The notes under the pieces are model-generated. The model was given only the letters and a program-made list of their open reading frames with translations. It was not told the DNA's origin and searched no databases. Positions 49,753-62,767 of a stretch of DNA of 64,000 bases are shown here, one piece after another. A program made the position numbers and the translations under genes. The stretch is taken from NCBI GenBank assembly GCA_041917655.1, contig JAYRXC010000024.1, positions 1,426 to 65,425 of the forward strand. Direction: 5' to 3'. This stretch comes from Ignavibacteria bacterium. Its GTDB lineage: Bacteria > Bacteroidota > Ignavibacteria > Tepidaquicellales > OLB5. Every line of letters begins with the position of its first letter. Position 1 is the first letter of the stretch.

Positions 49753-50655
49753 ATGCTGCTGATACTTACATCTATATTTGCGTACCATAACAGCACGATC
49801 AGATTCTGGTTTGTGTTCTGTGGGATTAATTTGGTTTTGATATGGTTCATCTGGCGGCTGGCTGATTCATACGGAAGAAAAACCGAATCAGTTAAGGATG
49901 AAAATATCAGGAACAGCTCTCCCCTCAAAATACTGCGCTATTGGTACGGTGTAGCAGCGATACTATATATATTCAAGCAAGTGTATATAATCGTATTTTC
50001 GCTTAAGCCTATGGACTGGGATAGTGTATTTATGCGGATGGACTTCGGTTTGTTCGGACTGAATCCGACTCAATGGGCTTACCAGTTCGCAAATCCATAC
50101 CTTACAGAGTTCCTGCAGATCGTTTACCTGTATTATTACCCTATGATAGTTGTGTTCGGGCTGGAATTATATCTCGGGCACAGGTATAAGGAATTCAAAT
50201 ATACCATATTCATTCTGTTCTTCAGCTTCTTCCTCAGCTATATACTCTATCTCTTTTTTCCGGCAAACGGGCCGCGTTTCCACCTGCATGATTTCTACTC
50301 AATAAACTCGGAGCTGCCGGGAATATTTTTAACCGAACATTTGCGGAATTTCATAAACTTCGGGGAGTCAATACCGCCGGGGGTGGTTAACCCGCAGGAC
50401 TATGTACAGCGTGATGCGATGCCAAGCCTGCACACCATCACGGCATTTTTGATAATGTACCTCTCTTTCAAGTTCAGGTCAAAATCATTTTACTTCTACC
50501 TTCCTTATTTTTTCTGCATGGTTGCGGCTACAATATACCTGAGGTATCACTACGTAGTGGATATTTTTGGCGGACTGATAATCTGCGCCTTTACGATAAT
50601 GATGGGCATGCTTGTTTACAGGAACAGGGAAATCCTTACAGTTAAAAATACCTGA
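49753..50655 (+). CDS. PAP2-superfamily membrane protein (lipid phosphatase / phosphotransferase-like)
   Basis: Multi-TM protein with C-terminal PAP2 motifs 'MPSLHT' and 'RYHYVVDIFGG'. Confidence 0.7.
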   Translation: MLLILTSIFAYHNSTIRFWFVFCGINLVLIWFIWRLADSYGRKTESVKDENIRNSSPLKILRYWYGVAAILYIFKQVYIIVFSLKPMDWDSVFMRMDFGLFGLNPTQWAYQFANPYLTEFLQIVYLYYYPMIVVFGLELYLGHRYKEFKYTIFILFFSFFLSYILYLFFPANGPRFHLHDFYSINSELPGIFLTEHLRNFINFGESIPPGVVNPQDYVQRDAMPSLHTITAFLIMYLSFKFRSKSFYFYLPYFFCMVAATIYLRYHYVVDIFGGLIICAFTIMMGMLVYRNREILTVKNT

Positions 50656-51694
50656 AAACTATTTTTTGAGCAACTAGTCCCGGAACCAATGGCTTTGTTC
50701 GTTTAACTACCCCGCTTGTCCCGTCAATTATTACCAAGAATCCGTTACTGTGCCACAATCCCAAATACAGTTCATTTGCGCTTGATTCATAAGCAATAGT
50801 CTGTATATTTTCTACTGAGGCAGCGGTGTATATTTTAGTGAAGACAAAAGTACCTGAATTAGCGGCTGCAAGCCATACTTCATTCCCGCCAACGACCGAA
50901 TAAAAACTGTTCTGTGTTCTAAATTCAAGCACATTGATGCCAAATGATGCTGAAGGTACAGCAAATGAATCAGTTATAGTTACAGTTGGCGGATCTACTC
51001 TGTAAATATTTTTGTTAGTATTTGTCGAAATAAAAATTCCGTTCACATTGTAGATCGCACTCACAGGCACAGCAGGAAAGAACTGCTTTGTTACCGCATA
51101 GTTAGTTTCATCAATAAATGCCGTTGAGGGTTCGTTATTCAGCGCAGATCTTGTTACAATGTACTTGTTGAAACCGTACAATACGTTTGCCGGATTGCTC
51201 CCAACTTCAACCGTATCCTTAATAATATTAAAATCCAGATCGAGCACTGTAATATTCGTACTGCCTGAATTGCCAACAACAATTCTGTTGTTGTTTATCG
51301 CAAATCCTTTTGGGGCATTCCCGAAATATAGTGAATCTTCTATACCATTGCTTACTGGATCAATTTTATAAATTGTTCCGTTACTTCCGGGGTTTCCGCT
51401 GGATGTTAAGTATATTTTTCTGTCTGAATTCAACTTCATATCACCCGGGTTGCCCTGTAGTGTCTTTCCGGAATTAAATGTTCTGAAAACATTATCAGTA
51501 ACCGAATCCCTGGCAGCATCATAATATGCATAATCAGTGAATGCAGGCGCGCCATAAAGTATATAAGCCCCCGCCAATGGATTACCGGCTGAATTATTTA
51601 CTGTCGGCCCCTCTGAATCGCCGCATGCAGCCAGGATAATAGTAAAGCAGAGCATCAGGCTATGCAAAATTGATTTTGTTATGGAGTATTTCAT
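50642..51694 (-). CDS. Beta-propeller (YncE-like) lipoprotein, paralogue of 60854..61945
   Basis: I prefer the ATG at 51694, which gives a lipoprotein signal (MLCFTIILAAC-GDS). Shares 'GTIYKI(D/N)P', 'ITVLD..(F/L)NII.D...VGSNP' and a C-terminal 'K(I/M)(V/A)F(R/K)Y' with the riboswitch-linked paralogue. Confidence 0.75.
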   Translation of the reverse strand: MKYSITKSILHSLMLCFTIILAACGDSEGPTVNNSAGNPLAGAYILYGAPAFTDYAYYDAARDSVTDNVFRTFNSGKTLQGNPGDMKLNSDRKIYLTSSGNPGSNGTIYKIDPVSNGIEDSLYFGNAPKGFAINNNRIVVGNSGSTNITVLDLDFNIIKDTVEVGSNPANVLYGFNKYIVTRSALNNEPSTAFIDETNYAVTKQFFPAVPVSAIYNVNGIFISTNTNKNIYRVDPPTVTITDSFAVPSASFGINVLEFRTQNSFYSVVGGNEVWLAAANSGTFVFTKIYTAASVENIQTIAYESSANELYLGLWHSNGFLVIIDGTSGVVKRTKPLVPGLVAQKIVFRYF

Positions 51695-51753
51695 CTTAAG
51701 GTGTATTAGAATTTTGTATGAGGATTTTTTTTGAATAATGGTTTTCTTTTTTT

Positions 51754-51872
51754 CCGTTTCACGTTTGACGTTTGACATTTCACGTTTGACGTTTGACATT
51801 TCACGTTTGATGTTTGACATTTCACGTTTGACGTTTCACATTTCACGTTTCACATTTCACATTTCACGTTTC
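51754..51872. repeat. Heptamer tandem array (about 17 copies of acRtttS, with the first 9 organised as three 21-bp units)
   Basis: Counted from the sequence: acgtttg acgtttg acatttc, three times (the third unit has atgtttg), then acgtttg acgtttc acatttc acgtttc acatttc acatttc acgtttc. Two further 'ttttgacatttg' copies lie at 51906-51917 and 51920-51931. Confidence 0.9.
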
Positions 51873-51934
51873 ATGCCCGACTTCCGTTTTCTGAAAATTT
51901 GGAAGTTTTGACATTTGGATTTTGACATTTGTCA

Positions 51935-52621
51935 TTAATACTCTATTCCTTTTCTCGCCTGTATGCCTTTATCAAAATAGTGTTTCACTTTCCTGTTCTC
52001 GGTAATCAGGTCAACGCGTTCTTCAAGTCCCTCAAACAGCTTATGACCGGTCATAATAAGCTCGAACCTTCTGTTTTTATCGTACAGGTCGAGAATTTCA
52101 AATACATCCTTTTCTTCTATCAAGTGATAATTTGCTGCGGCAACAAATTCATCAAGCACCAATATATCCTGTTTGCCGTTAACGATGAGATCTCTTACGA
52201 TACCCAGAGCGCGCTTAGCTTCTTCAAAATCCTCTTCTGCGTTTTTGAAGCGGAAAGTGCCGTCTTCATTCATACGCTCGCATCCGCTTGAATATATTTC
52301 AACAGGATAACCTTGTTCTTTAAGCTTAAGAAATATCCGGCGCTCGAAATAATGCTCCTTTGCCTGGTCCTGCCCTTTATCGAACTCCACAATAGCCACG
52401 CTCATCCCGGCGCCTAATGCGCGGAAAGCGAGTCCGACAGCGGCTGTAGTTTTTCCTTTGCCGTAGCCGTAATATAAGTGTGACTGGTGTTTTGCTTCGT
52501 CAGGGAGCTTGTTGTATTCTTCCAGGACCTTTTGAACTTTTTCGCGGTACTTTTTGCCGCCGGCTTTTTTCGCTTCTTCTATAGAAACCTTTTTACCGCC
52601 TGAGAGATTTTTACCGCTCAT
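51935..52621 (-). CDS. cobO: Cob(I)yrinic acid a,c-diamide / cob(I)alamin adenosyltransferase (CobO/BtuR type)
   Basis: 'YYGYGKGKTTAAVGLAFRALGAGMSVAIVEFDKG' P-loop motif, 'LDEF..A' and 'ELIMTG'. A Lys-rich N-terminal extension is present. Confidence 0.9.
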   Translation of the reverse strand: MSGKNLSGGKKVSIEEAKKAGGKKYREKVQKVLEEYNKLPDEAKHQSHLYYGYGKGKTTAAVGLAFRALGAGMSVAIVEFDKGQDQAKEHYFERRIFLKLKEQGYPVEIYSSGCERMNEDGTFRFKNAEEDFEEAKRALGIVRDLIVNGKQDILVLDEFVAAANYHLIEEKDVFEILDLYDKNRRFELIMTGHKLFEGLEERVDLITENRKVKHYFDKGIQARKGIEY

Positions 52622-52636
52622 AAAGACTGGTCCGAT

Positions 52637-53140
52637 CTACTTATCAATTGTAAAATCTATTGTGATGGTTTTTCCGCCCAGGTCAAGCTGGCGGTAAGTT
52701 ACTTTGGCAAGATCCAGCATTTTTTTTGATGCCTTAACGCTGTCGGTCTCTTTGTATTTATCAGAGAGGTAGATTATTTCTTTTACACCGGATTGGATTA
52801 TCAGCTTTGTGCACTCATTGCAGGGAAAAAGCGCTACATATATCCTTGAGCCATGCAGGTCTTTAGTGGAGTTAAGTATGGCATTGGCTTCGGCGTGTAC
52901 CACATAGGGATACTTAGTCTCATTGGTTTCCTCAGAGGTTTTGCCCCAGGGTAGCTGGTCGTCATCACAGCCAATTGGGAATCCGTTGTAACCGATACCA
53001 ACTATCTTATTGTATTGGTTAACAATGCATGCGCCGACCTGCGTACTGGGATCTTTGCTCCGCTTTGCGGAAAGCAATGCGATCCCCATAAAATACTCAT
53101 CCCACGAAATGTAATCCTGTCTTTTCATTTCACTTTCCAT
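52637..53140 (-). CDS. Deoxycytidylate (dCMP) deaminase
   Basis: 'SWDEYFM..A.L.A.RS.DP..QVGA', zinc motifs 'VHAEANAI' and 'PCNECTKLI'. Confidence 0.9.
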
Positions 53141-53212
53141 TCCCGCGCAGGCGGGCTTTTGTCAATCCCGCTCAGGCAGCTTTTTGTCATTCCCGCAAAG
53201 GCGGGAATCTCC
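53138..53212. repeat. Three tandem REP-like hairpins, family A variants
   Basis: cattcccgcgcaggcgggc / gtcaatcccgctcaggcagc / gtcattcccgcaaaggcgggaatc, each preceded by 'ttttg'. They lie immediately upstream of the dCMP deaminase start. Confidence 0.7.
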
Positions 53213-53310
53213 AGTTCCAATTAATCCATAATCACCCATATAAAAATAATCTCAACTCAGTAGCACAGACATTTAGAAGAGCACTTTCGTGACCTGTCTG
53301 TGTAAATCAA

Positions 53311-53844
53311 TCAAGCATACTTCTTCAACTCCTCATTCATCTCTTCAAGGGTGCCGTCATTTATCACGGTATAATCAGTATAGGCAATCGGGCCTCCCTT
53401 ATCAAGCTTCTCTATCTCGCTGATATCCCTGCTTTTTGATTCATCATTAGTCAGCGGGCGGAAAGGCCTCTTCAGCAGCCTTTCATACCTCAAAGCCTTG
53501 GTTGTATATATCGTCAAGAGCTTAAATGCTTCGCCAAACTTATCCTTCAGTATTTTGAACTCTTCCCATGAGTAAAGGCTTTCAACCACCACATTGTGTT
53601 CCTTCAGAAATTCCTCTATAAGCGGCAGACTCTTAACAGCCATTGCTCCCATGCCGAATTCTTTCCGCAAATTTTCGCGGGTAGCCCGTTCATTGGCTTC
53701 GTTGACCTCAAGTCCCAGCCTTTTCATTTCATTCATCACAACTTCACCGAAATAAACGCGTTTAAAGCCCTTATCAACAAAGAACTTCACAGCCTCGCTT
53801 TTTCCTGATCCGCACATGCCAACAACGGCAATTATTTTATTCAA
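53311..53844 (-). CDS. P-loop nucleotide/nucleoside kinase-like protein (dephospho-CoA kinase / dNMP kinase-like)
   Basis: Walker A 'VVGMCGSGKSE', small size (177 aa), and a helical lid region. Substrate specificity cannot be read from the sequence. Confidence 0.6.
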   Translation of the reverse strand: MNKIIAVVGMCGSGKSEAVKFFVDKGFKRVYFGEVVMNEMKRLGLEVNEANERATRENLRKEFGMGAMAVKSLPLIEEFLKEHNVVVESLYSWEEFKILKDKFGEAFKLLTIYTTKALRYERLLKRPFRPLTNDESKSRDISEIEKLDKGGPIAYTDYTVINDGTLEEMNEELKKYA

Positions 53845-54077: not shown

Positions 54078-54323
54078 TTATAACTTCCTCAAAAAAACCG
54101 GGCAAAAATCGTAACCATTTGGCCAGGTCACAGAGCCATTATCTAAATATACTTTGTTAAAAAAATCAATATCCCTGAGATCAGCGGAAATTCCTCCATC
54201 AATAAATGGCTTTATATCAATATTCTTAACCATCCCATCATCAAACTGTATATTAATTGAATAGTCCCCTAATGGTTCAACTTTGATGATATCGTGTATG
54301 ATCGATTTCTCTATTGTACTCAT
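54078..54323 (-). CDS. DUF2442-like small protein
   Basis: 81 aa with 'I.FDDG....D......' and a C-terminal 'V.WPNG.D..P' pattern that I recognise as DUF2442. Overlaps the upstream DUF4160-like gene by 4 nt. Confidence 0.7.
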   Translation of the reverse strand: MSTIEKSIIHDIIKVEPLGDYSINIQFDDGMVKNIDIKPFIDGGISADLRDIDFFNKVYLDNGSVTWPNGYDFCPVFLRKL

Positions 54324-54580
54324 ACAAGCGGGTCAATTTTATTTAATATCTTTTTTTCTCTTGCCAAATTCCAATCGGTAATCAGTTCATCCCTGTGTTC
54401 GGTGGCCCATTCAAGTACCAAAGAATAAACTCTTCGTGGAAGCCTTCCCTCTTTAACCTCAAGTGTTTCGATCAAGATCTCAGCCTTATAATCATTGTAT
54501 TCTGCGTGAAAATGCGGTGGAGCATGTTCATTGTAGAACATCTTAATAATTATACCAAGAAATCTGCTTATCTCCGGCAT
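54320..54580 (-). CDS. DUF4160-like small protein
   Basis: 'MPEISRFLGIIIKMFYNEHAPPHFHAEY' is the characteristic DUF4160 N-terminus. Starts 1 nt after the metH stop. Confidence 0.8.
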   Translation of the reverse strand: MPEISRFLGIIIKMFYNEHAPPHFHAEYNDYKAEILIETLEVKEGRLPRRVYSLVLEWATEHRDELITDWNLAREKKILNKIDPLV

Positions 54581-54581
54581 C

Positions 54582-57500
54582 TTATATTAATTCTTTTTCC
54601 GTTCTTTCATATGCCAGTATCGGGGCAAGCCATCTTTCAATCTCCTCAACAGGCATGTTCTTCCGGCGCGCGTAATCTTCAACCTGGTCGCGGTTTATCT
54701 TGCCTACATTGAAATACTTTGATTCAGGATGCGAAAAATACAATCCGCTCACCGCTGATGCAGGATACATCGCAAATGATTCAGTAAGCTTAATACCGGT
54801 ATTCTCTTCCACTTCCAGCAGGTCAAAAATTACCTGCTTTTCGGTGTGGTCAGGCTGCGCGGGATAACCCGGTGCAGGCCTTATGCCATCATATTTTTCC
54901 GCTATCAGGTCTTCTGGGCTTAAGTTCTCATTTTTCGAGTAGCCCCAAAGCTCCTTCCTCACCATTTCATGCATCAGCTCGGCAAATGCCTCGGCAAGCC
55001 TGTCTGCAAGCGCCTTGGTCATTATGCTGCTGTAATCGTCATGCTCTTTGTGGAATCTTTCAAGCAGTGATTCAATGCCAATACCCGTGGTAACTGCGAA
55101 GCATCCGATGTAATCTTTTATACCGGTGGATTCAGGCGCTATCAGATCCGAAAGTGCATAATACGGCTCCCGGTTTGTCTTCTCTGCCTGCTGCCTTATT
55201 GTATGTAAAACTGCAATTGTTTCCTTGCGCTTATCGTTTGTGTAAAGATTTATATCATCACCCTCGGAGTTGGCCGGATAAAATCCAACCACTGCATTTG
55301 CCTTAAGCCATTTGTTTGAAATTATCTCATCAAGCAAACGGTTAGCGTCATCAAAAAGCTTTTTGGCTTCACTTCCGTAGTTTGTGTCGTAAAATATCTT
55401 TGGATACTTGCCCTTCATTTCCCATGTCTGGAAAAACGGGGTCCAGTCGATCCTTTCTCTTATCTTCTCAAGCGGGAAATCTTCAAAAACCTTATTCCCT
55501 GTAAAGCTTGGCTTGGTGATCTTCGTACTCTTCCAATTGATCTTCAATCCCCTGCTGCGCGCTTCTTCAATTGTAAGGAATTTTTTATTATCCTTCCTGC
55601 CCTTGTGCGAAATACGCATTCTCTCATATTCCTGCTTAATGGAACCGATAAATCCTTCGCGGTTATCCTTGTTCATTAAGCTGCCGGCCACTGTTACACT
55701 GCGTGATGCATCGAGTACGTGAACTGTTGGGTTAGAATAATTCGGCGCTATCTTCACTGCGGCGTGTATCTTCGAGGTAGTTGCACCGCCGATAAGCAGC
55801 GGCACTTTGAATCCCTGCCGCTCCATTTCCTTTGCAACATGTACCATCTCGTCGAGTGAAGGCGTTATGAGTCCGCTTAACCCGATTATATCAACATTCT
55901 TTTCTTTTGCTATCTGCAGTATCTTATCAGCCGGCACCATCACACCGAGATCGATAACTTCGTAGTTATTGCAGCCAAGCACGACGCCAACGATATTTTT
56001 ACCAATATCATGAACATCGCCTTTAACAGTTGCAAGAAGTATTCTGCCGTTGATGCTTGATGAGCCTGCGGCTTTTGCAGCCTCAATATAAGGTGTAAGG
56101 TAAGCAACGGATTTCTTCATAACCCTCGCGCTTTTTACCACCTGCGGCAGGAACATTTTTCCTGCGCCGAACAGATCGCCAACAACATTCATACCGTCCA
56201 TTAACGGACCTTCGATTACATCAAGCGGCTGTGGGTATTTTTGACGCGCTTCTTCTGTGTCAACTTCAATAAACTCTACAATACCTTTAATCAGCGCGTG
56301 CTTAAGCCGCTCTTCTACGGGAGCATCACGCCACTTGTTATCCTGCTCAATTACTTTGCCCTTTGTTTTGATGGTATCCGCAAACTGAACAAGCCTCTCT
56401 GTTGCATCAGCGCGCCTGTTGAGCAATACGTCTTCCACCAGCTCCAGCAGGTCTTTGGGTATCTCATCATAAACTTCTATCATACCCGCGTTAACAATGC
56501 CCATATCCATTCCCGCTTTGATAGCGTGGTAAAGGAATGCTGAGTGCATTGCTTCCCTTACAACATTATTGCCGCGGAAGGAAAACGAAATATTGCTTAC
56601 GCCGCCGCTTACTTTTGCCAGCGGCAGATTCTCTTTTATCCACTTAGTCGCCCTTATATAATCAACGGCATAATTATTATGCTCATCAATACCGGTTGCA
56701 ACAGTTAAAATGTTCGGGTCAAAAATTATGTCCTGCGGCGCAAAGCCGACTTTTTTAGTCAATATATCATAACATCTTTTGCAGATCTCGATCCTTCTTT
56801 CGTAGCTATCAGCCTGTCCCTGTTCATCAAATGCCATCACAATAACTGCTGCGCCGTAAAGCTTAACCTTCCGGGCATGCTCTATGAATTTCTCTTCACC
56901 TTCTTTAAGGCTGATAGAGTTAACAATTCCTTTTCCCTGCAGGCATTTCAGGCCAGCTTCGATGATCTCCCATTTGGAAGAATCAAGCATAACGGGAACT
57001 CTTGCAATATCCGGCTCAACGGCAGTCAGCTTAAGGAATTTCTCCATGGCGGCAACGCCGTCTATCATACCCTCGTCCATATTAATATCAATGACCTGCG
57101 CACCGCTCTCGACCTGCTGAAGCGCAACACTTAACGCCTCTTCATAATTCTCTTCCCTAATCAGCTTGGCAAACTTTGCCGAGCCTGTAATATTTGTACG
57201 TTCACCGATATTTACAAAATTGGTTTGCGGCGTAACGTTCAGCGGCTCAAGTCCGCTAAGCCTTAAATACTGCTCTACTTCAGGCAGCTTTCTGGGCGGA
57301 ATATCCTTTACAAACTCTGCTATCTTAGCGATATGGTCCGGTGTAGTTCCGCAGCAGCCGCCAACCAGATTCAGGAAACCGCTTTCACCGAATTCCTTCA
57401 GGTAAGCGGCCGTTTCTTCGGGCAGCTCATCATAGCCGCCGAATGCGTTAGGCAATCCGGCATTTGGATAGCAGCTAATGTACATATTAGCCTTTTCCGA

Positions 57501-58274
57501 AAGCTCTTCGATGTACGGGCGCATTTCTTTTGCGCCAAGCGAGCAGTTAAGCCCGATGCTGAAAATTCCGGCATGCGCAACAGAGTTCAGGAACGCTTCT
57601 ACAGTTTGGCCTGAAAGCGTTCTTCCGCTCATATCAACAATTGTACCCGAGACCATGATTGGGATCCTCTTTCCAATTCGGTCGAACAGCTCGTTAATGG
57701 CAAACAGCGCGGCTTTGCAGTTGAGAGTATCGAAAACTGTTTCTACAAGCAGCAGGTCAACTCCGCCATCTATCAGCCCTTTTGCGGCTTCCTGGTATGA
57801 CTCTTTGATCTGTTCAAAAGTAACAGCCCTGTAGCCCGGATCATTTACATCTGGAGACATTGAAAGGGTTTTGTTCATTGGCCCGATAGCCCCGGCAACC
57901 CAGCGGGGCTTATCCGGCGTTAACGCTGTGAATTTATCCGCGGCCTGTTTTGCAAGGCGCGCGGATTCAAAATTCATTTCATATACATATTCCTGTGTAT
58001 TGTAATCTGCCTGTGAGATCGAAGAGGAATTAAAAGTATTTGTGCCAACTATATCGCTTCCTGCCGCAAGGTACTGCTCATATATTTCTGATATGATCGC
58101 AGGCTGCGTTATGTTCAGGATATCATTGTTGCCCTTCAGGTCATTTGGGAAATCCCGAAACCGCTCGCCGCGAAAGCCCGCTTCATCAAGATTTTTCTTC
58201 TGGATCATTGTGCCGCGGGGGCCATCCAGCATTACTATTCTTTTGCTTAGCTCATCTTTTAATCGCTCTATCAT
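54582..58274 (-). CDS. metH: Cobalamin-dependent methionine synthase
   Basis: 1230 aa with all modules. Hcy-binding ('GGCCGTTP'), pterin-binding, B12-binding ('[11 protein letters not shown]', DxHxxG), and the AdoMet reactivation domain ('RPAPGYPA'). Confidence 0.97.
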
Positions 58275-58284
58275 GAATGATGTT

Positions 58285-58845
58285 TTATTTCCTGATCTTT
58301 GCTTCTTTTAAAACAGCAGATGTACCTGCCAGCCTTGTCACCACTTCATATATGCCGAATAAAGCTGCGGAATAGAACAGGTCGCCTGCAAGTGAATTAC
58401 GGAAGAACGGGATAGCCATTGTGTAGCACTCAGCCAGTCCTTTGAAGTTCATTTCATACATCATTCCGCTTGTCCACACGCCAAAGTTGGTAAGCAGGAA
58501 GAAAAACACTGAAGCAACAAGTGTTGAGGCGAAAATGTAACCGGCCTTGCCTGCGCCGCTTCTGTTCTCGACTCTTTTCTTGAGCCAGAGGCCGATAAGC
58601 GCAACAACAGCAAATGAGCCGTAAACCCATTCAATGCCTGCGTAGAACCCGATAAACAGGTCGCTTAAAAGCATTGCGGTGATTGGCAGTATGAACGCGA
58701 ATTTTTTATCCATATACACGCCGGCAAACAATGCTATTGCCGCTATCGGCGCGAAGTTCATTGGATGGGGAATCAGCCTTGAAAAGGCAGCAAACAGTAT
58801 AAGAACTGCTGCTATGATAAAGTTTGTCATTTTAGAGTTATTCAT
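58285..58845 (-). CDS. Small six-TM membrane protein, candidate corrinoid transporter component (function inferred from context only)
   Basis: 186 aa with six hydrophobic segments and the '[20 protein letters not shown]' motif. Sits between the TonB-dependent receptor and metH, with 20-nt and 10-nt gaps. Confidence 0.65.
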
Positions 58846-58865: not shown

Positions 58866-60854
58866 TTAGTATTTAATATTTATTTCTGTTTTGAAATTTC
58901 TAAGCGGCATCGGGTAGCCCGGCAAGACGCTGTAGCTTTCGTTTAATAAGTTGTTGGCTATGAACTTCAGTCCGACTTCAATATCTCCGGCCTGAAAGCC
59001 CAGCCCTATATTTCCGTCAAGGACATCATACCTCGGAATGAATTCCGTATTTTCAAAATTGGTATATCTCCTTGTGGAAAAATTGTAAAACAGGCTAAAA
59101 GATACAAATTTTATAAATTTACTTGTAGTCAAATAATTCAGCATAATTGAAGCTTTTAGCATCTCTTTTGGCAGGTAAATAAGCTGCTTATTGTAAGAAG
59201 GGTCTCCCGGGTAATCTTCGTTTTTCTTCATAGCGCTGCCAAAAGTATAATTTATAGCGGTTTGCGTTGTGAGCTTCTTAGCCAGTGCAAACACCGAGCG
59301 CAGGCTTACATCAATACCTTCGCTTCTTACTTTGCCTACATTTATGGGTTTCCATATTGCTGCCGATTCAGGCGTCCACAAAATGCGGTCTGTTGTATTG
59401 ATATTGTAATAGGATATTTCAAGCTCATGTTCGGCGGCCAGATTTAGCCTGTAATAGATTCCTGCGTCAAAGCTGATGGAGCGCTCAGGCTTCAAATCCG
59501 GATTGCCGATATCCTTCCAGTAAAGCTCGTTGAATGTCGGCGCGCTGAAGTTGTTGCCAAAGGATGATTTGAAATGCAGGTCAGCAGCTGCAAATGGTTT
59601 GATATTCACTCCAAGCTTGCCTGTTACAACATTTTTGGTGTTAATGTTGGAAAAATGGTCATACCGCACGGTTGGGTAGATAGTGAAAACCGGCGAGCCC
59701 TTTCGCAGGAATTCGAATTTCCCCGCCCATAGAGCAGCAGCCTGGAATTGTTTGCCTTCATCGGTCTCATTGCTTGTGATATTACTGAACGATACTTCAG
59801 CGCCTGCATCGAAGCTGTAATTCTTCTCAGGCACAAAGCTGAACACATTTGATGCAGAATAATTATTCAGCCTGTAGAAGCTGTTGATGGGCGAAGAAAA
59901 CCCAAATGTTGCCGGATCAAAGTATTTCTGCAGCGCGTTGCGGTATCCAAGTGTTGACTTCATCGTAAGAACACGAGAGATCCTGCGAAACAGTGAAGCG
60001 CCCGAAAAAATATTTTTATCTATCTGCCTCGCTATTCCCGTAGCATAGCCGATGTCAATCCCGGGTACTCCTCTTTCGAAATGAGTATAGTTAGCAAACA
60101 GTTCCAGCATTACTTTATCACTTTCGGAAAAAGTTAAATCAGCATCGAATGACTGCGTGTTATAGTCAGAGTTTTCCCTGTTCCTCAACACTTTGTTAAC
60201 ACCGCTATTGAGGTAGTAATCAAAATCATTCTTTGCCCTGTTATCCGAAAATGAAATGCTGTAGCCGGCGGTTGAAACTCCTTTCAGCCTGAATCCCTGC
60301 GAGAATCTGCCGAAGAAATTTTTTTGACCGTAAGAACCTAAACCTGCCTTCAATGTGAATCCAAACGGCGCGGCAGGAACATTGGTTTTGGTGATAATAT
60401 TAATTACCCCGCCGATAGCTTCGCTGCCGTAGAGCGCCGATGAACCGCCTTTGGAGATCTCGATGCGTTCAATATTATCCAGATCGTAAAGTGAAAGATC
60501 GACCTGAGCATTCTGGCTGCTGTTAAGCCTGATGCCATTCAGCAGGATAAGCGTATGCTCGCTTTGAGTGGCATTTAGTGATATGGTCTTGGTGCCGGAG
60601 TTAAATCCGTAATCCTTAACATACACTGCGTCACTCAGTTTCAGCGCATCCGGCAGCGAAGTGCCGTTAAGCGATGAAATGAACTCCCCATCCATTACCT
60701 GAATCTTATTTGGCGCGGTAGAGTTTGTCATCTTTACACGGTTTGATTCAACAACTATCTCGCCGGTAACGACGCTATCCATCCTTTGCGAATACAACTC
60801 CCCGCAGAGAACAGCTGCCATGAGAAGAACAAGTATATTGATGTAACATCTCAT
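58866..60854 (-). CDS. TonB-dependent outer-membrane receptor (BtuB-like by riboswitch context)
   Basis: Signal peptide, plug domain ('ISKGGSSALYGSEAIGGVINIITK'), a 22-strand-type barrel, and the C-terminal 'NFKTEINIKY'. The ATG at 60854 overlaps the upstream stop by 1 nt (TGATG). Confidence 0.9.
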   Translation of the reverse strand: MRCYINILVLLMAAVLCGELYSQRMDSVVTGEIVVESNRVKMTNSTAPNKIQVMDGEFISSLNGTSLPDALKLSDAVYVKDYGFNSGTKTISLNATQSEHTLILLNGIRLNSSQNAQVDLSLYDLDNIERIEISKGGSSALYGSEAIGGVINIITKTNVPAAPFGFTLKAGLGSYGQKNFFGRFSQGFRLKGVSTAGYSISFSDNRAKNDFDYYLNSGVNKVLRNRENSDYNTQSFDADLTFSESDKVMLELFANYTHFERGVPGIDIGYATGIARQIDKNIFSGASLFRRISRVLTMKSTLGYRNALQKYFDPATFGFSSPINSFYRLNNYSASNVFSFVPEKNYSFDAGAEVSFSNITSNETDEGKQFQAAALWAGKFEFLRKGSPVFTIYPTVRYDHFSNINTKNVVTGKLGVNIKPFAAADLHFKSSFGNNFSAPTFNELYWKDIGNPDLKPERSISFDAGIYYRLNLAAEHELEISYYNINTTDRILWTPESAAIWKPINVGKVRSEGIDVSLRSVFALAKKLTTQTAINYTFGSAMKKNEDYPGDPSYNKQLIYLPKEMLKASIMLNYLTTSKFIKFVSFSLFYNFSTRRYTNFENTEFIPRYDVLDGNIGLGFQAGDIEVGLKFIANNLLNESYSVLPGYPMPLRNFKTEINIKY

Positions 60855-61945
60855 CAATTATATTTGAACGCCATTTTCTTAGGAAATTTTCCGCCAATAT
60901 CCGGAAAGGTATTCAGCAGGTTTCCGCTCAGATCATACACCCGTACTTCACCATTTGCCGTGCCGCTTTTGGAATTTGCTATATATATTCTGTGATTGAT
61001 CCTGTCGAACGATATTCCGTAAACATCATCTGTGCCGGTGAACTGGATATTGAATGAGGGGTCTATAGTGCGGGTCTGCACATCCACTTTGTAAACCCTT
61101 TTGCCCACATTGGAAGCAAATGATGTATCTGCAACCCCCAAAACCAGCAGAACATGAGAGTCCACAGCGATCATTGAGCCTATAGCAGGCTCGGGTATGG
61201 ACATTGTCATGGAATCGCCTATGGTATTGAACTGCTGGATTATTGAATAGATCTTTTTGCCGGAATAGGTTGAGATGTATATCCTGTTCTCGCCTTCTGT
61301 AACACAAACCGGCGGTGTATCAAAATAGAATTTGTTGACCTGGTAAGTATTTTTATTAACTATTGCGACAGAGTTTTCAAAAGTATAGCTCTGCTTGGCA
61401 ACGTAGAGATAATCGCCGTAAAGAACGATATCAGATGGATTGCTGCCGACCCGGATGGAATCAGCAATTATATTCAGGTTATTATCAAGCACAGTAATAT
61501 GATCACCGGCTGTATTTGTCACATACAGGTTGCCGTTATATTCACCCGCTGCTGAATATGGATTCGTGCCGAAATTGCGCGAAGTTATGAGCTGGTTTGT
61601 TGATGGGTTTATCTTGTAGATCGTACCGGCCTGTCCGTAAGTTCCCTGGGATATGACAAACAGGGTGCTCCCGTTTAGCAGCATCCCGTCTGGTGTTGAG
61701 TTGAGCGCCATACCGCTGTTTGAATTCTGGAACACATTGGCATTCACAGTACCGCTATCAGTATTTATAAATGCATAGTCGTATGAGGTTGGCTGACCGA
61801 ACGAGCCCTCGTAAAGAACGAAAACTCCTTTTGTTGTAGTGACCGGATTATTGTATACAATTTCTTCTTCACCGCAGCCGGTAAAGAAAACAGCAATAAA
61901 AAATGAGGTAATAAAAAACAAAAAAACTGATTTGAACTTTTTCAT
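60854..61945 (-). CDS. Beta-propeller (YncE-like) lipoprotein, first gene of the cobalamin-riboswitch operon
   Basis: Signal ending in Cys (FFIAVFFTGC-GEEE). Repeated 'G..P..I......LYV.N' blade-like segments. Paralogous to 50642..51694. Confidence 0.75.
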   Translation of the reverse strand: MKKFKSVFLFFITSFFIAVFFTGCGEEEIVYNNPVTTTKGVFVLYEGSFGQPTSYDYAFINTDSGTVNANVFQNSNSGMALNSTPDGMLLNGSTLFVISQGTYGQAGTIYKINPSTNQLITSRNFGTNPYSAAGEYNGNLYVTNTAGDHITVLDNNLNIIADSIRVGSNPSDIVLYGDYLYVAKQSYTFENSVAIVNKNTYQVNKFYFDTPPVCVTEGENRIYISTYSGKKIYSIIQQFNTIGDSMTMSIPEPAIGSMIAVDSHVLLVLGVADTSFASNVGKRVYKVDVQTRTIDPSFNIQFTGTDDVYGISFDRINHRIYIANSKSGTANGEVRVYDLSGNLLNTFPDIGGKFPKKMAFKYN

Positions 61946-61989
61946 ATTTCTCCCGATGAAAAAAGTTAGTTATAAAATTGGTTTGTTAC

Positions 61990-62030
61990 AAAAACAAAAC
62001 TCCCTGCTTCTAAATGACACGGGAGAAAAC
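61990..62030 (-). terminator. Possible riboswitch expression-platform terminator
   Basis: The minus strand reads ...tctcccgtgtcatttagaagcagggag-ttttgttttt. It has a short stem (ctccc / gggag; an alternative 7-bp pairing uses the upstream ctccctg) plus a U-tract. It lies between the aptamer and the first start codon. Confidence 0.35.
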
Positions 62031-62114
62031 AAATACATGGTCATATAGAGACAGGGAGTCCCAATTTTTTCAGTTAACATGTAATCTTTGCCCTCGAAGA
62101 TCATTACAGAAGAT

Positions 62115-62285
62115 ATTTCCGGCAGGTCTCCTGGCTTAAGAGCAATTAACGGTAAGTCTTCCCATCAATAAAACGATAGTGACGTAACAAATACCGGTCT
62201 TCTCTATTACAGTTGCGGGGACAGCCCAGGATTATTCAGTATTTTGAACAAGCTTCACCTGGTTCCCTATTATTCACCATTTAAG
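62115..62285 (-). promoter_or_regulatory. Cobalamin (B12) riboswitch
   Basis: The reverse complement contains the hallmark elements in the correct order. These are 'AGGGAACCAGGTGAA' (rc of 62254-62268), 'CCTGGGCTGTCCCCGCAACTGTAA' (rc of 62207-62230), 'GTCACT...GATGGGAAGAC', and the B12 box 'AGCCAGGAGACCTGCC' (rc of 62121-62136). Confidence 0.85.
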
Positions 62286-62408
62286 TTAAGTGAACCGAAA
62301 ATAATTCTCCGCTTTAAGCGGAAGTATAACAAAGAGCTGTTTTACAAAAATAGGGAAATTAATGTTAAAGAGAAATGGAGAATATTCAGACCGTAACTTC
62401 TCAAATTT

Positions 62409-62474
62409 GTCGTGCTGAGCGGAGTCGAAGCACAATAGTATGAGGTTTCACCCTTCGACTTCGCTCAGGGTGAC
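62409..62474. repeat. Inverted pair of REP-like units, family C (ctgagcg[ga]agtcgaag)
   Basis: gtcgtgctgagcggagtcgaagcac ... cacccttcgacttcgctcagggtgac. The arms pair over about 16 nt with one mismatch. Confidence 0.7.
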
Positions 62475-62607
62475 ATATCTCATCAGTATTGAATTTGAAT
62501 ATGGGATATTACAACACACCCCGGCACTAAAGTGCCACCCCTCTCAAGAGGGGAATTATTCCATTCCTGTTTCCCAAACTCTGATTAGGGAGAAGATTAG
62601 CAAGTTG

Positions 62608-62767
62608 AATGCTCCTCTCTCCTCTCAGGAGAGGGGCCGGGGGTGAGGTGATAATCAAAAGATACTCGGTCACGATATTCGTAGCACGAGGGGATTAACA
62701 AGCAATGCTCCCCTCTCCTCTCTGGAGAGGGGCCGGGGGTGAGGTGATAATCAAAAGATACTCGGTC
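62608..62767. repeat. Two ~64-bp direct repeats (period 96 bp), each containing a family-B hairpin
   Basis: aatgctcc[t/c]ctctcctctc[a/t]ggagaggggccgggggtgaggtgataatcaaaagatactcggtc occurs at 62608-62671 and 62704-62767. Confidence 0.85.

Follow-up and report, generated by a model that had tools for sequence, protein, structure and literature searches.

In a window of 64,000 nucleotides from an environmental Ignavibacteria metagenome-assembled genome (MAG), by which we mean the whole stretch of DNA analysed, the first gene behind a cobalamin riboswitch encodes a divergent homologue of BtuG, the lipoprotein that covers the vitamin B12 receptor BtuB in Bacteroides thetaiotaomicron. We consider it likely that this lipoprotein works as a surface corrinoid-capturing lid of the BtuG type for the BtuB-type receptor with which it is co-translated. 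Four neighbouring features carry this reading.

62104..62314, minus strand: cobalamin riboswitch aptamer (RF00174), cmscan score 110.7 bits against a gathering threshold of 31.5, E 7.4e-27, model positions 1-189, complete
61985..62062, minus strand: long imperfect hairpin with a U-run, ~50 nt ahead of the lipoprotein ATG, fold z-score -2.6
60854..61945, minus strand: BtuG-family (PF16819/DUF5074) seven-bladed beta-propeller lipoprotein, 363 aa, assigned by Pfam, hhalign, profile search, an AlphaFold2 (AF2) model and Foldseek
58866..60854, minus strand: BtuB-type TonB-dependent receptor, 662 aa, Plug and barrel domains, translationally coupled to the lipoprotein gene (TGATG)

An earlier note on this DNA had described the 363-aa lipoprotein with its propeller-like architecture as the first gene after the B12 riboswitch, and had placed its stop codon 1 nt into the receptor gene. 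Open reading frame (ORF), lipobox and riboswitch match all agree with that description, and the aptamer is the sole Rfam element in the whole 64-kb window. The junction of the two genes reads AAT-TGA-TG (TGATG), and with the receptor ATG at 60854 the overlap is 1 nt, as claimed; a mechanical ORF call that starts the receptor from a TTG at 60857 gives 4 nt instead. A junction of the form TAATG or TGATG recurs in 11 related loci. The lipoprotein has 90+ homologues with identities of 27-96%, so its gene is not a chance ORF. The closest of them (to 96% identity), together with 12 genome loci that we compared, all come from Ignavibacteria MAGs or from MAGs labelled Chlorobi/Chlorobiota.

Homology to BtuG was tested with family models and with profiles. 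The lipoprotein matched the Pfam family PF16819 (DUF5074) with 39.3 bits (cutoff 27.2), residues 39-359 covering profile positions 1-351 of 353. The same family contains BtuG2 (BT1954), BVU2056, BACUNI04578, PARMER00027 and BACCAC03125, whose sequences come from the study in which BtuG was first defined (PMC6143338), and cyanocobalamin binding has been shown experimentally for BtuG2, BVU2056 and BACUNI04578 (PMC6143338). When an alignment of 44 Ignavibacteria homologues of the lipoprotein was compared by hhalign with an alignment of 10 BtuGs, the two matched with a probability of 99.9-100% and E-values of 2.4e-35 to 2.9e-49 over 337-339 columns. The profile of the 44 homologues also retrieved the BtuG1, BtuG3 and BtuG2 chains of the PDB (8BLW_B, 8PTD, 8P97_B, 8BMX_D and 3DSM) at full length, with E-values of 1e-18 to 2e-11. 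By BLASTP, the lipoprotein aligned with PARMER00027 over its full length (23% identity, E 1e-11) and with BtuG2 at 19% identity (E 2e-4). A single-sequence phmmer search of the PDB with the lipoprotein yielded the archaeal YVTN propeller 1L0Q only and no BtuG, which accounts for the uncertainty of the earlier note about this homology; it surfaced only by Pfam, profile and fold comparison. In source records the homologues bear the names 'YncE family' or 'YVTN family', and public annotation already labels such proteins DUF5074. An exhaustive search of representative sequences returned 34,520 matches, mostly giant multi-repeat YVTN proteins, and is uninformative on the size of the BtuG family.

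The predicted fold pointed the same way. An AF2 model built from the alignment of 44 homologues (mean predicted local distance difference test score, pLDDT, 91.7; predicted template modelling score 0.85) is a seven-bladed propeller, in keeping with the architecture first described; its strands form seven four-stranded blades, and the N-terminal strands and the last strand close the ring. In a Foldseek search of the PDB with this model, the top 16 matches were all BtuG1, BtuG2 or BtuG3, most of them cobalamin-bound (E 5e-18 to 4e-15); for the predicted model, template modelling (TM) scores on the target were 0.78-0.84 and root-mean-square deviations 2.7-4.5 A (about 3 A). BtuK1, then 1L0Q and YncE, ranked below the BtuGs. 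Because PF16819 is common to both, the hhalign probability is 99.9-100% and the Foldseek top 16 are all BtuG, the lipoprotein is a divergent homologue of BtuG and not an independent solution. The earlier note had left this choice undecided and proposed profile and Foldseek comparison with the BtuG structures as the way to make it; both, once run, favoured BtuG. It had also named similarity to an unrelated enzyme family with an intact active site as a finding that would speak against the assignment, and a Pfam search detected no enzyme family in the lipoprotein, while the BtuGs outranked YncE and 1L0Q.

The N-terminus is that of an exported lipoprotein, with a hydrophobic signal peptide, the lipobox FFTG-C24 and an acidic G-E-E-E immediately after the cysteine. 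The lipobox cysteine is invariant across the 44 homologues, and the family pattern that follows it is [S/G]-[D/E/R]-[E/D]-[E/D]-[I/V]; at positions +2 to +6, 43/44 homologues have at least one Asp or Glu and 31/44 have at least two. Such a run is like the export signal of Bacteroidota lipoproteins that BtuG has been described to carry (PMC6143338), and it may act as a surface-export signal in Ignavibacteria as well.

Linkage to the riboswitch was then followed in related genomes. The search for related loci was built on a 14-sequence alignment and gave the 12 genome loci mentioned above, in which the lipoprotein is 46-79% identical to that of the window. RF00174 lies 150-230 nt upstream of the lipoprotein gene in 11 of these 12 Ignavibacteria/Chlorobiota loci, and in the window as in the same 11 loci the gene adjoins, in the same direction, a btuB homologue behind the riboswitch; a contig end truncates the twelfth. 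Wherever downstream sequence was available, the order btuB, a gene for a DUF6580 membrane protein, and metH followed. Since synteny within one clade is weak evidence alone, more distant lineages were examined. In three loci (L020-L022) the order is AAA_18, dCMP deaminase, riboswitch, btuB, cobO, btuG, the propeller being 27-28% identical to that of the window with its E-G-x-F motif kept, and the receptor 34% identical. The earlier note had held that the corrinoid link would suffer if homologues lacked a recurrent association with B12 riboswitches or btuB. The association of propeller, riboswitch, btuB and cobO in a different order therefore supplies that recurrence, with RF00174 and btuB accompanying the homologues in 11/12 loci and, in the alternative order, in L020 and L021.

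The leader between aptamer and lipoprotein gene is conserved in form. A hairpin and U-run equivalent to that of the window stands at the same distance in the 11 loci, with folding free energies over the whole set of -22 to -37 kcal/mol and differing stem sequences. A terminator scanner with a loop limit of 8 nt missed this long hairpin, which direct folding detected. The hairpin is a probable intrinsic terminator that would serve as the expression platform of the riboswitch. Further upstream of the riboswitch are two imperfect inverted repeats, 62396..62487 (35 nt, 74% complementary) and 62538..62636 (17 nt, 82% complementary), in an apparently non-coding stretch; they look like repetitive extragenic palindromic elements.

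Eighteen corrinoid contacts of BtuG2, collected from published structures (bioRxiv 10.1101/2024.02.16.580637, PMC10404256, PMC13616437), were mapped onto the lipoprotein by hhalign. Four are identical, 7 conservative and 7 lost (BtuG2 residue first).

Identical: E55 to E46 and G56 to G47 (both invariant in 44/44 homologues), F58 to F49, Y316 to Y309
Conservative: Q93 to D86, N107 to Q100 (invariant), S131 to N128 (invariant), W194 to Y187, S195 to T188, Y196 to F189, I359 to F354
Lost: R133 to Y130, I148 to T145, W149 to A146, Q219 to P211, Y335 to G328, Y239 deleted, W272 to P253

The anchor E55-G56-x-F58 of BtuG2 is thus retained as E46-G47-x-F49. By this mapping the predicted pocket is clearly rewired relative to BtuG2.

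Several of these observations weigh against the function that we propose. Identity to the characterised BtuGs is only 15-23%; the seven lost contacts include R133, which is Arg in 10/10 BtuGs and a fixed Tyr (Y130) in 44/44 Ignavibacteria homologues; the two blade-5 loops that close over the ligand in BtuG2, bearing Y239 and W272, are shortened; the export signal has been validated in Bacteroidota only; and three further loci (L017-L019, receptor 46-53% identical) have the riboswitch, btuB, DUF6580 and metH in series without a btuG, so a lid is not obligatory for this type of receptor. The changes in the pocket could mean that this genuine homologue of BtuG has other ligands, such as incomplete corrinoids or another tetrapyrrole, or that it serves chiefly as a structural lid and binds weakly or not at all by itself. 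BtuG1 has in common only ~60% of the BtuG2 contacts (bioRxiv 10.1101/2024.02.16.580637); pocket drift is therefore normal in the BtuG family, which makes such a course conceivable here. However, the surroundings are all cobalamin-specific (riboswitch, BtuB1-like receptor, metH and cobO), the E-G-x-F anchor and Y309 are strictly conserved, and BtuG touches the corrin's side chains only (PMC10404256), so that corrinoid binding can survive a partial change of the pocket. We regard a change of ligand or of role as unlikely, while giving it the best chance among the alternatives.

A second alternative concerns location. The lipoprotein could face the periplasm from the outer or inner membrane and carry corrinoids from BtuB to an inner-membrane carrier, in place of the missing BtuF, rather than cap the receptor from outside. 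The operon has no gene for BtuF or BtuCD, which would suit such a chaperone, as would the validation of the export signal in Bacteroidota only. Against it stand the acidic run after the lipobox cysteine in 43/44 homologues, the full-length homology to lids that sit atop BtuB in crystal and cryo-electron microscopy structures (PMC10404256) and the translational coupling to the receptor gene, and we think a periplasmic position quite improbable. A third alternative, by which an unrelated propeller of the YVTN/YncE type or an enzyme of the lactonase or cyclase type merely lies beside the receptor gene, or by which the protein is a convergent non-homologue, is hardly credible and already contradicted: the names of its homologues and the lone 1L0Q match would allow it, but the YncE model (NCBIfam NF052280) gave 19.1 bits against an equivalog cutoff of 400, profile and fold searches placed all BtuG structures above 1L0Q and YncE at full length, and the riboswitch linkage recurs in two gene orders.

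As a BtuG-type lid, the lipoprotein would be exported to the cell surface, where it would cap the adjacent BtuB-type receptor; one face of the propeller would capture cobalamin or other corrinoids and hand them to the receptor. At low intracellular cobalamin, the riboswitch would let transcription pass the terminator hairpin, and the joint output would be the lid, the receptor, the DUF6580 protein as candidate inner-membrane carrier and probably MetH.

The receptor itself fits a BtuB of the Bacteroides type. Its best NCBIfam model was TonB-B12, with a score below the cutoff, and among solved structures BtuB1 of B. thetaiotaomicron (8BLW_A) came closest, matching at full length with E 6e-47 ahead of BtuB2 and BtuB3; the match of E. 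coli BtuB was confined to the plug. Receptor and lipoprotein are both closest to the BtuB1-BtuG1 pair. Below the receptor, the following genes lie in order on the same strand.

58285..58845, minus strand: six-helix membrane protein DUF6580 (PF20221, E 3e-51)
54582..58274, minus strand: cobalamin-dependent methionine synthase MetH (NCBIfam metH, 2134 bits), starting 10 nt after the DUF6580 gene
54078..54580, minus strand: two small overlapping genes between metH and the AAA_18 gene
52637..53844, minus strand: AAA_18 P-loop protein and dCMP deaminase, downstream of metH and ahead of cobO
51935..52621, minus strand: ATP:corrinoid adenosyltransferase CobO/BtuR (PF02572, E 9e-45)
50642..51694, minus strand: divergent BtuG-like lipoprotein paralogue, 350 aa, lipobox Cys24, directly after cobO

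The DUF6580 gene sits between btuB and metH in L002-L019, whether btuG is present or not, and neither BtuF nor BtuCD was found among the annotated genes of the locus. An AF2 model of the DUF6580 protein (pLDDT 83.6) bears a weak likeness to the S-components RibU, FolT, PanT and ThiT of energy-coupling factor (ECF) transporters (TM 0.5-0.6, E>0.3). NCBI names the protein 'putative transport protein', and our literature search found no paper on DUF6580. Judged from its family and its place in the operon, it is a candidate inner-membrane corrinoid carrier. Homology to BtuM, another small membrane protein, was considered and rejected: neither single-sequence nor profile searches of the PDB gave any match at E<=10, and the DUF6580 protein has no Cys near positions 75-85, its conserved Cys being at 140.

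Here, as in every related locus, metH lies inside an operon with a cobalamin riboswitch of the probable terminator type. That a B12 off-switch would lower the B12-dependent MetH when B12 is plentiful is counter-intuitive. The two small genes at 54078..54580 correspond to DUF4160 and DUF2442 genes in one related locus (L016) and are replaced by a DUF4288 gene in another (L013); this position is a variable cargo slot in an otherwise conserved cluster. The AAA_18 and dCMP deaminase genes accompany cobO in all three operon architectures and have no obvious role in B12 metabolism.

The earlier note had also pointed to a paralogue beside cobO as strengthening the corrinoid link. The paralogue and its start at 51694 were confirmed: it is 30% identical to the main lipoprotein over its full length (E 3e-33), and the ORF call that extends to 51820 owes its extra length to a tandem repeat. 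Its family, aligned from 25 sequences, is limited to the Ignavibacteria lineage, and neither the protein nor the family has a Pfam match. By hhalign the family matches that of the main lipoprotein with E 1e-82 and BtuG more loosely (99.4%), with partial PDB matches only. At identities down to 42%, the paralogue gene invariably comes after cobO, with a gap of just 20 nt in L016; in the distant btuB-cobO-btuG operons (L020-L022) this slot is taken by btuG. P0090-P0093 were tried as orthologues of the paralogue and rejected; they make up a third subgroup, whose operons have an order of their own. Within the paralogue family, E-G-x-F has been altered or lost by deletion, and none of the mapped contact positions agrees with BtuG or is constant from member to member. 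What the paralogue lends to the corrinoid link thus comes from its position and its descent and not from a preserved pocket; the conserved place beside cobO upholds the earlier claim, while the change at all predicted ligand-contact positions takes away the rest of it. The two alternative architectures, that of L017-L019 without btuG and that of L020-L022, suggest that the arrangement in the window arose by duplication or relocation of btuG.

The gap between cobO and the paralogue gene holds a heptad tandem array (NGTSAAA; on the minus strand ATGTCAAA, ACGTCAAA, ACGTGAAA) at 51751..51873, also at 51907..51936, which can be read with a period of 7 (17.7 copies) or of 21 (5.5 copies). The array occurs with another copy number in L013 (9850..9945) and is absent in L016, where the gap is 20 nt. 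Translated, it gives the 392-aa ORF call for the paralogue its spurious N-terminus, the extension MSNIKRE-MSNVKRE.

A wider scheme for the cluster is possible, and we offer it tentatively. The locus might encode a minimal corrinoid route free of BtuFCD, from surface BtuG through BtuB and DUF6580, that feeds MetH and CobO; DUF6580 would then be an unrecognised class of inner-membrane B12 carrier, the BtuG pocket would have been rewired, with a fixed Tyr for the invariant Arg and no blade-5 lid loops, and the paralogue after cobO would have been recruited to a new role unlike that of BtuG after an ancestral btuB-cobO-btuG operon was rearranged.

Among known systems, the best single-sequence matches of the lipoprotein are the S-layer YVTN propeller of Methanosarcina mazei (1L0Q) and E. 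coli YncE (3VGZ), which have the YVTN-type blade repeat in common with it; unlike the lipoprotein, they lack both a lipobox and a B12 context, and the match covers the repeats and not the full length. BtuK1 and BtuK2 of B. thetaiotaomicron (BT1486/BT1487; PDB 9S6C, 4R5O) are seven-bladed lipoproteins of B12 loci and the next-best fold matches after the BtuGs (TM 0.58-0.75), but they carry an N-terminal PKD domain that the lipoprotein lacks, and the sequence match is restricted to ~60 N-terminal residues. For the DUF6580 protein, the nearest parallel is BtuM of Thiobacillus denitrificans (6FFV), likewise a membrane protein of ~20 kDa encoded beside btuB in a locus without btuCDF (PMC6072759). 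The predicted fold of DUF6580 is S-component-like, as is that of BtuM, with Foldseek E-values that are not significant; the two differ in having no sequence similarity even by profile, and the invariant Cys80 of BtuM (PMC6072759) has no counterpart in DUF6580.

The closest known systems are BtuG1, BtuG2 and BtuG3 of B. thetaiotaomicron (BT1490, BT1954, BT2095; PDB 8BLW, 3DSM/8BMX, 8P97/8OKV). Of six BtuG features tested, five were found in the lipoprotein: membership of PF16819, homology, the seven-bladed propeller fold (predicted TM about 0.83), a lipobox cysteine followed by acidic residues, and a gene that adjoins a btuB homologue, in the same direction, in a locus under a cobalamin riboswitch. 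For the sixth, conservation of the corrinoid contacts, the picture is mixed: the E-G-x-F anchor and the equivalent of Tyr316 are kept, while 7 of the 18 positions are lost. The differences lie in the low identity (15-23%), the replacement of Arg133 by a fixed Tyr and the shortened blade-5 loops of Tyr239 and Trp272. Whereas the hosts of BtuG1/2/3 are gut Bacteroides, this host is an environmental Ignavibacteria MAG; and unlike the loci of BtuG1/2/3, this one has no BtuH fusion and is without BtuJ, BtuH, BtuK and BtuFCD, with DUF6580 and metH instead.

In 2018, BtuG was described as exclusive to Bacteroidetes from a search of gut genomes only (PMC6143338), and PF16819 propellers have already been noted in B12 loci (PMC13398666). 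Our literature search found no paper linking BtuG to Ignavibacteria. In NCBI taxonomy, Ignavibacteria form their own phylum within the Bacteroidota/Chlorobiota group. In GTDB they rank as a class of Bacteroidota, which makes the extension of the BtuG range modest. The lipoprotein adds a member to the BtuG family, already annotated as DUF5074, and with it the solution of a lid plus a receptor would extend to environmental Ignavibacteria. Three natural operon variants, in which the lid precedes btuB, is missing or comes after cobO, together with the clade-fixed change from Arg to Tyr, offer handles on which features of BtuG are essential, and the conserved DUF6580 protein, standing where an inner-membrane B12 carrier is expected, offers one on how B12 may cross the inner membrane without btuFCD at the locus.

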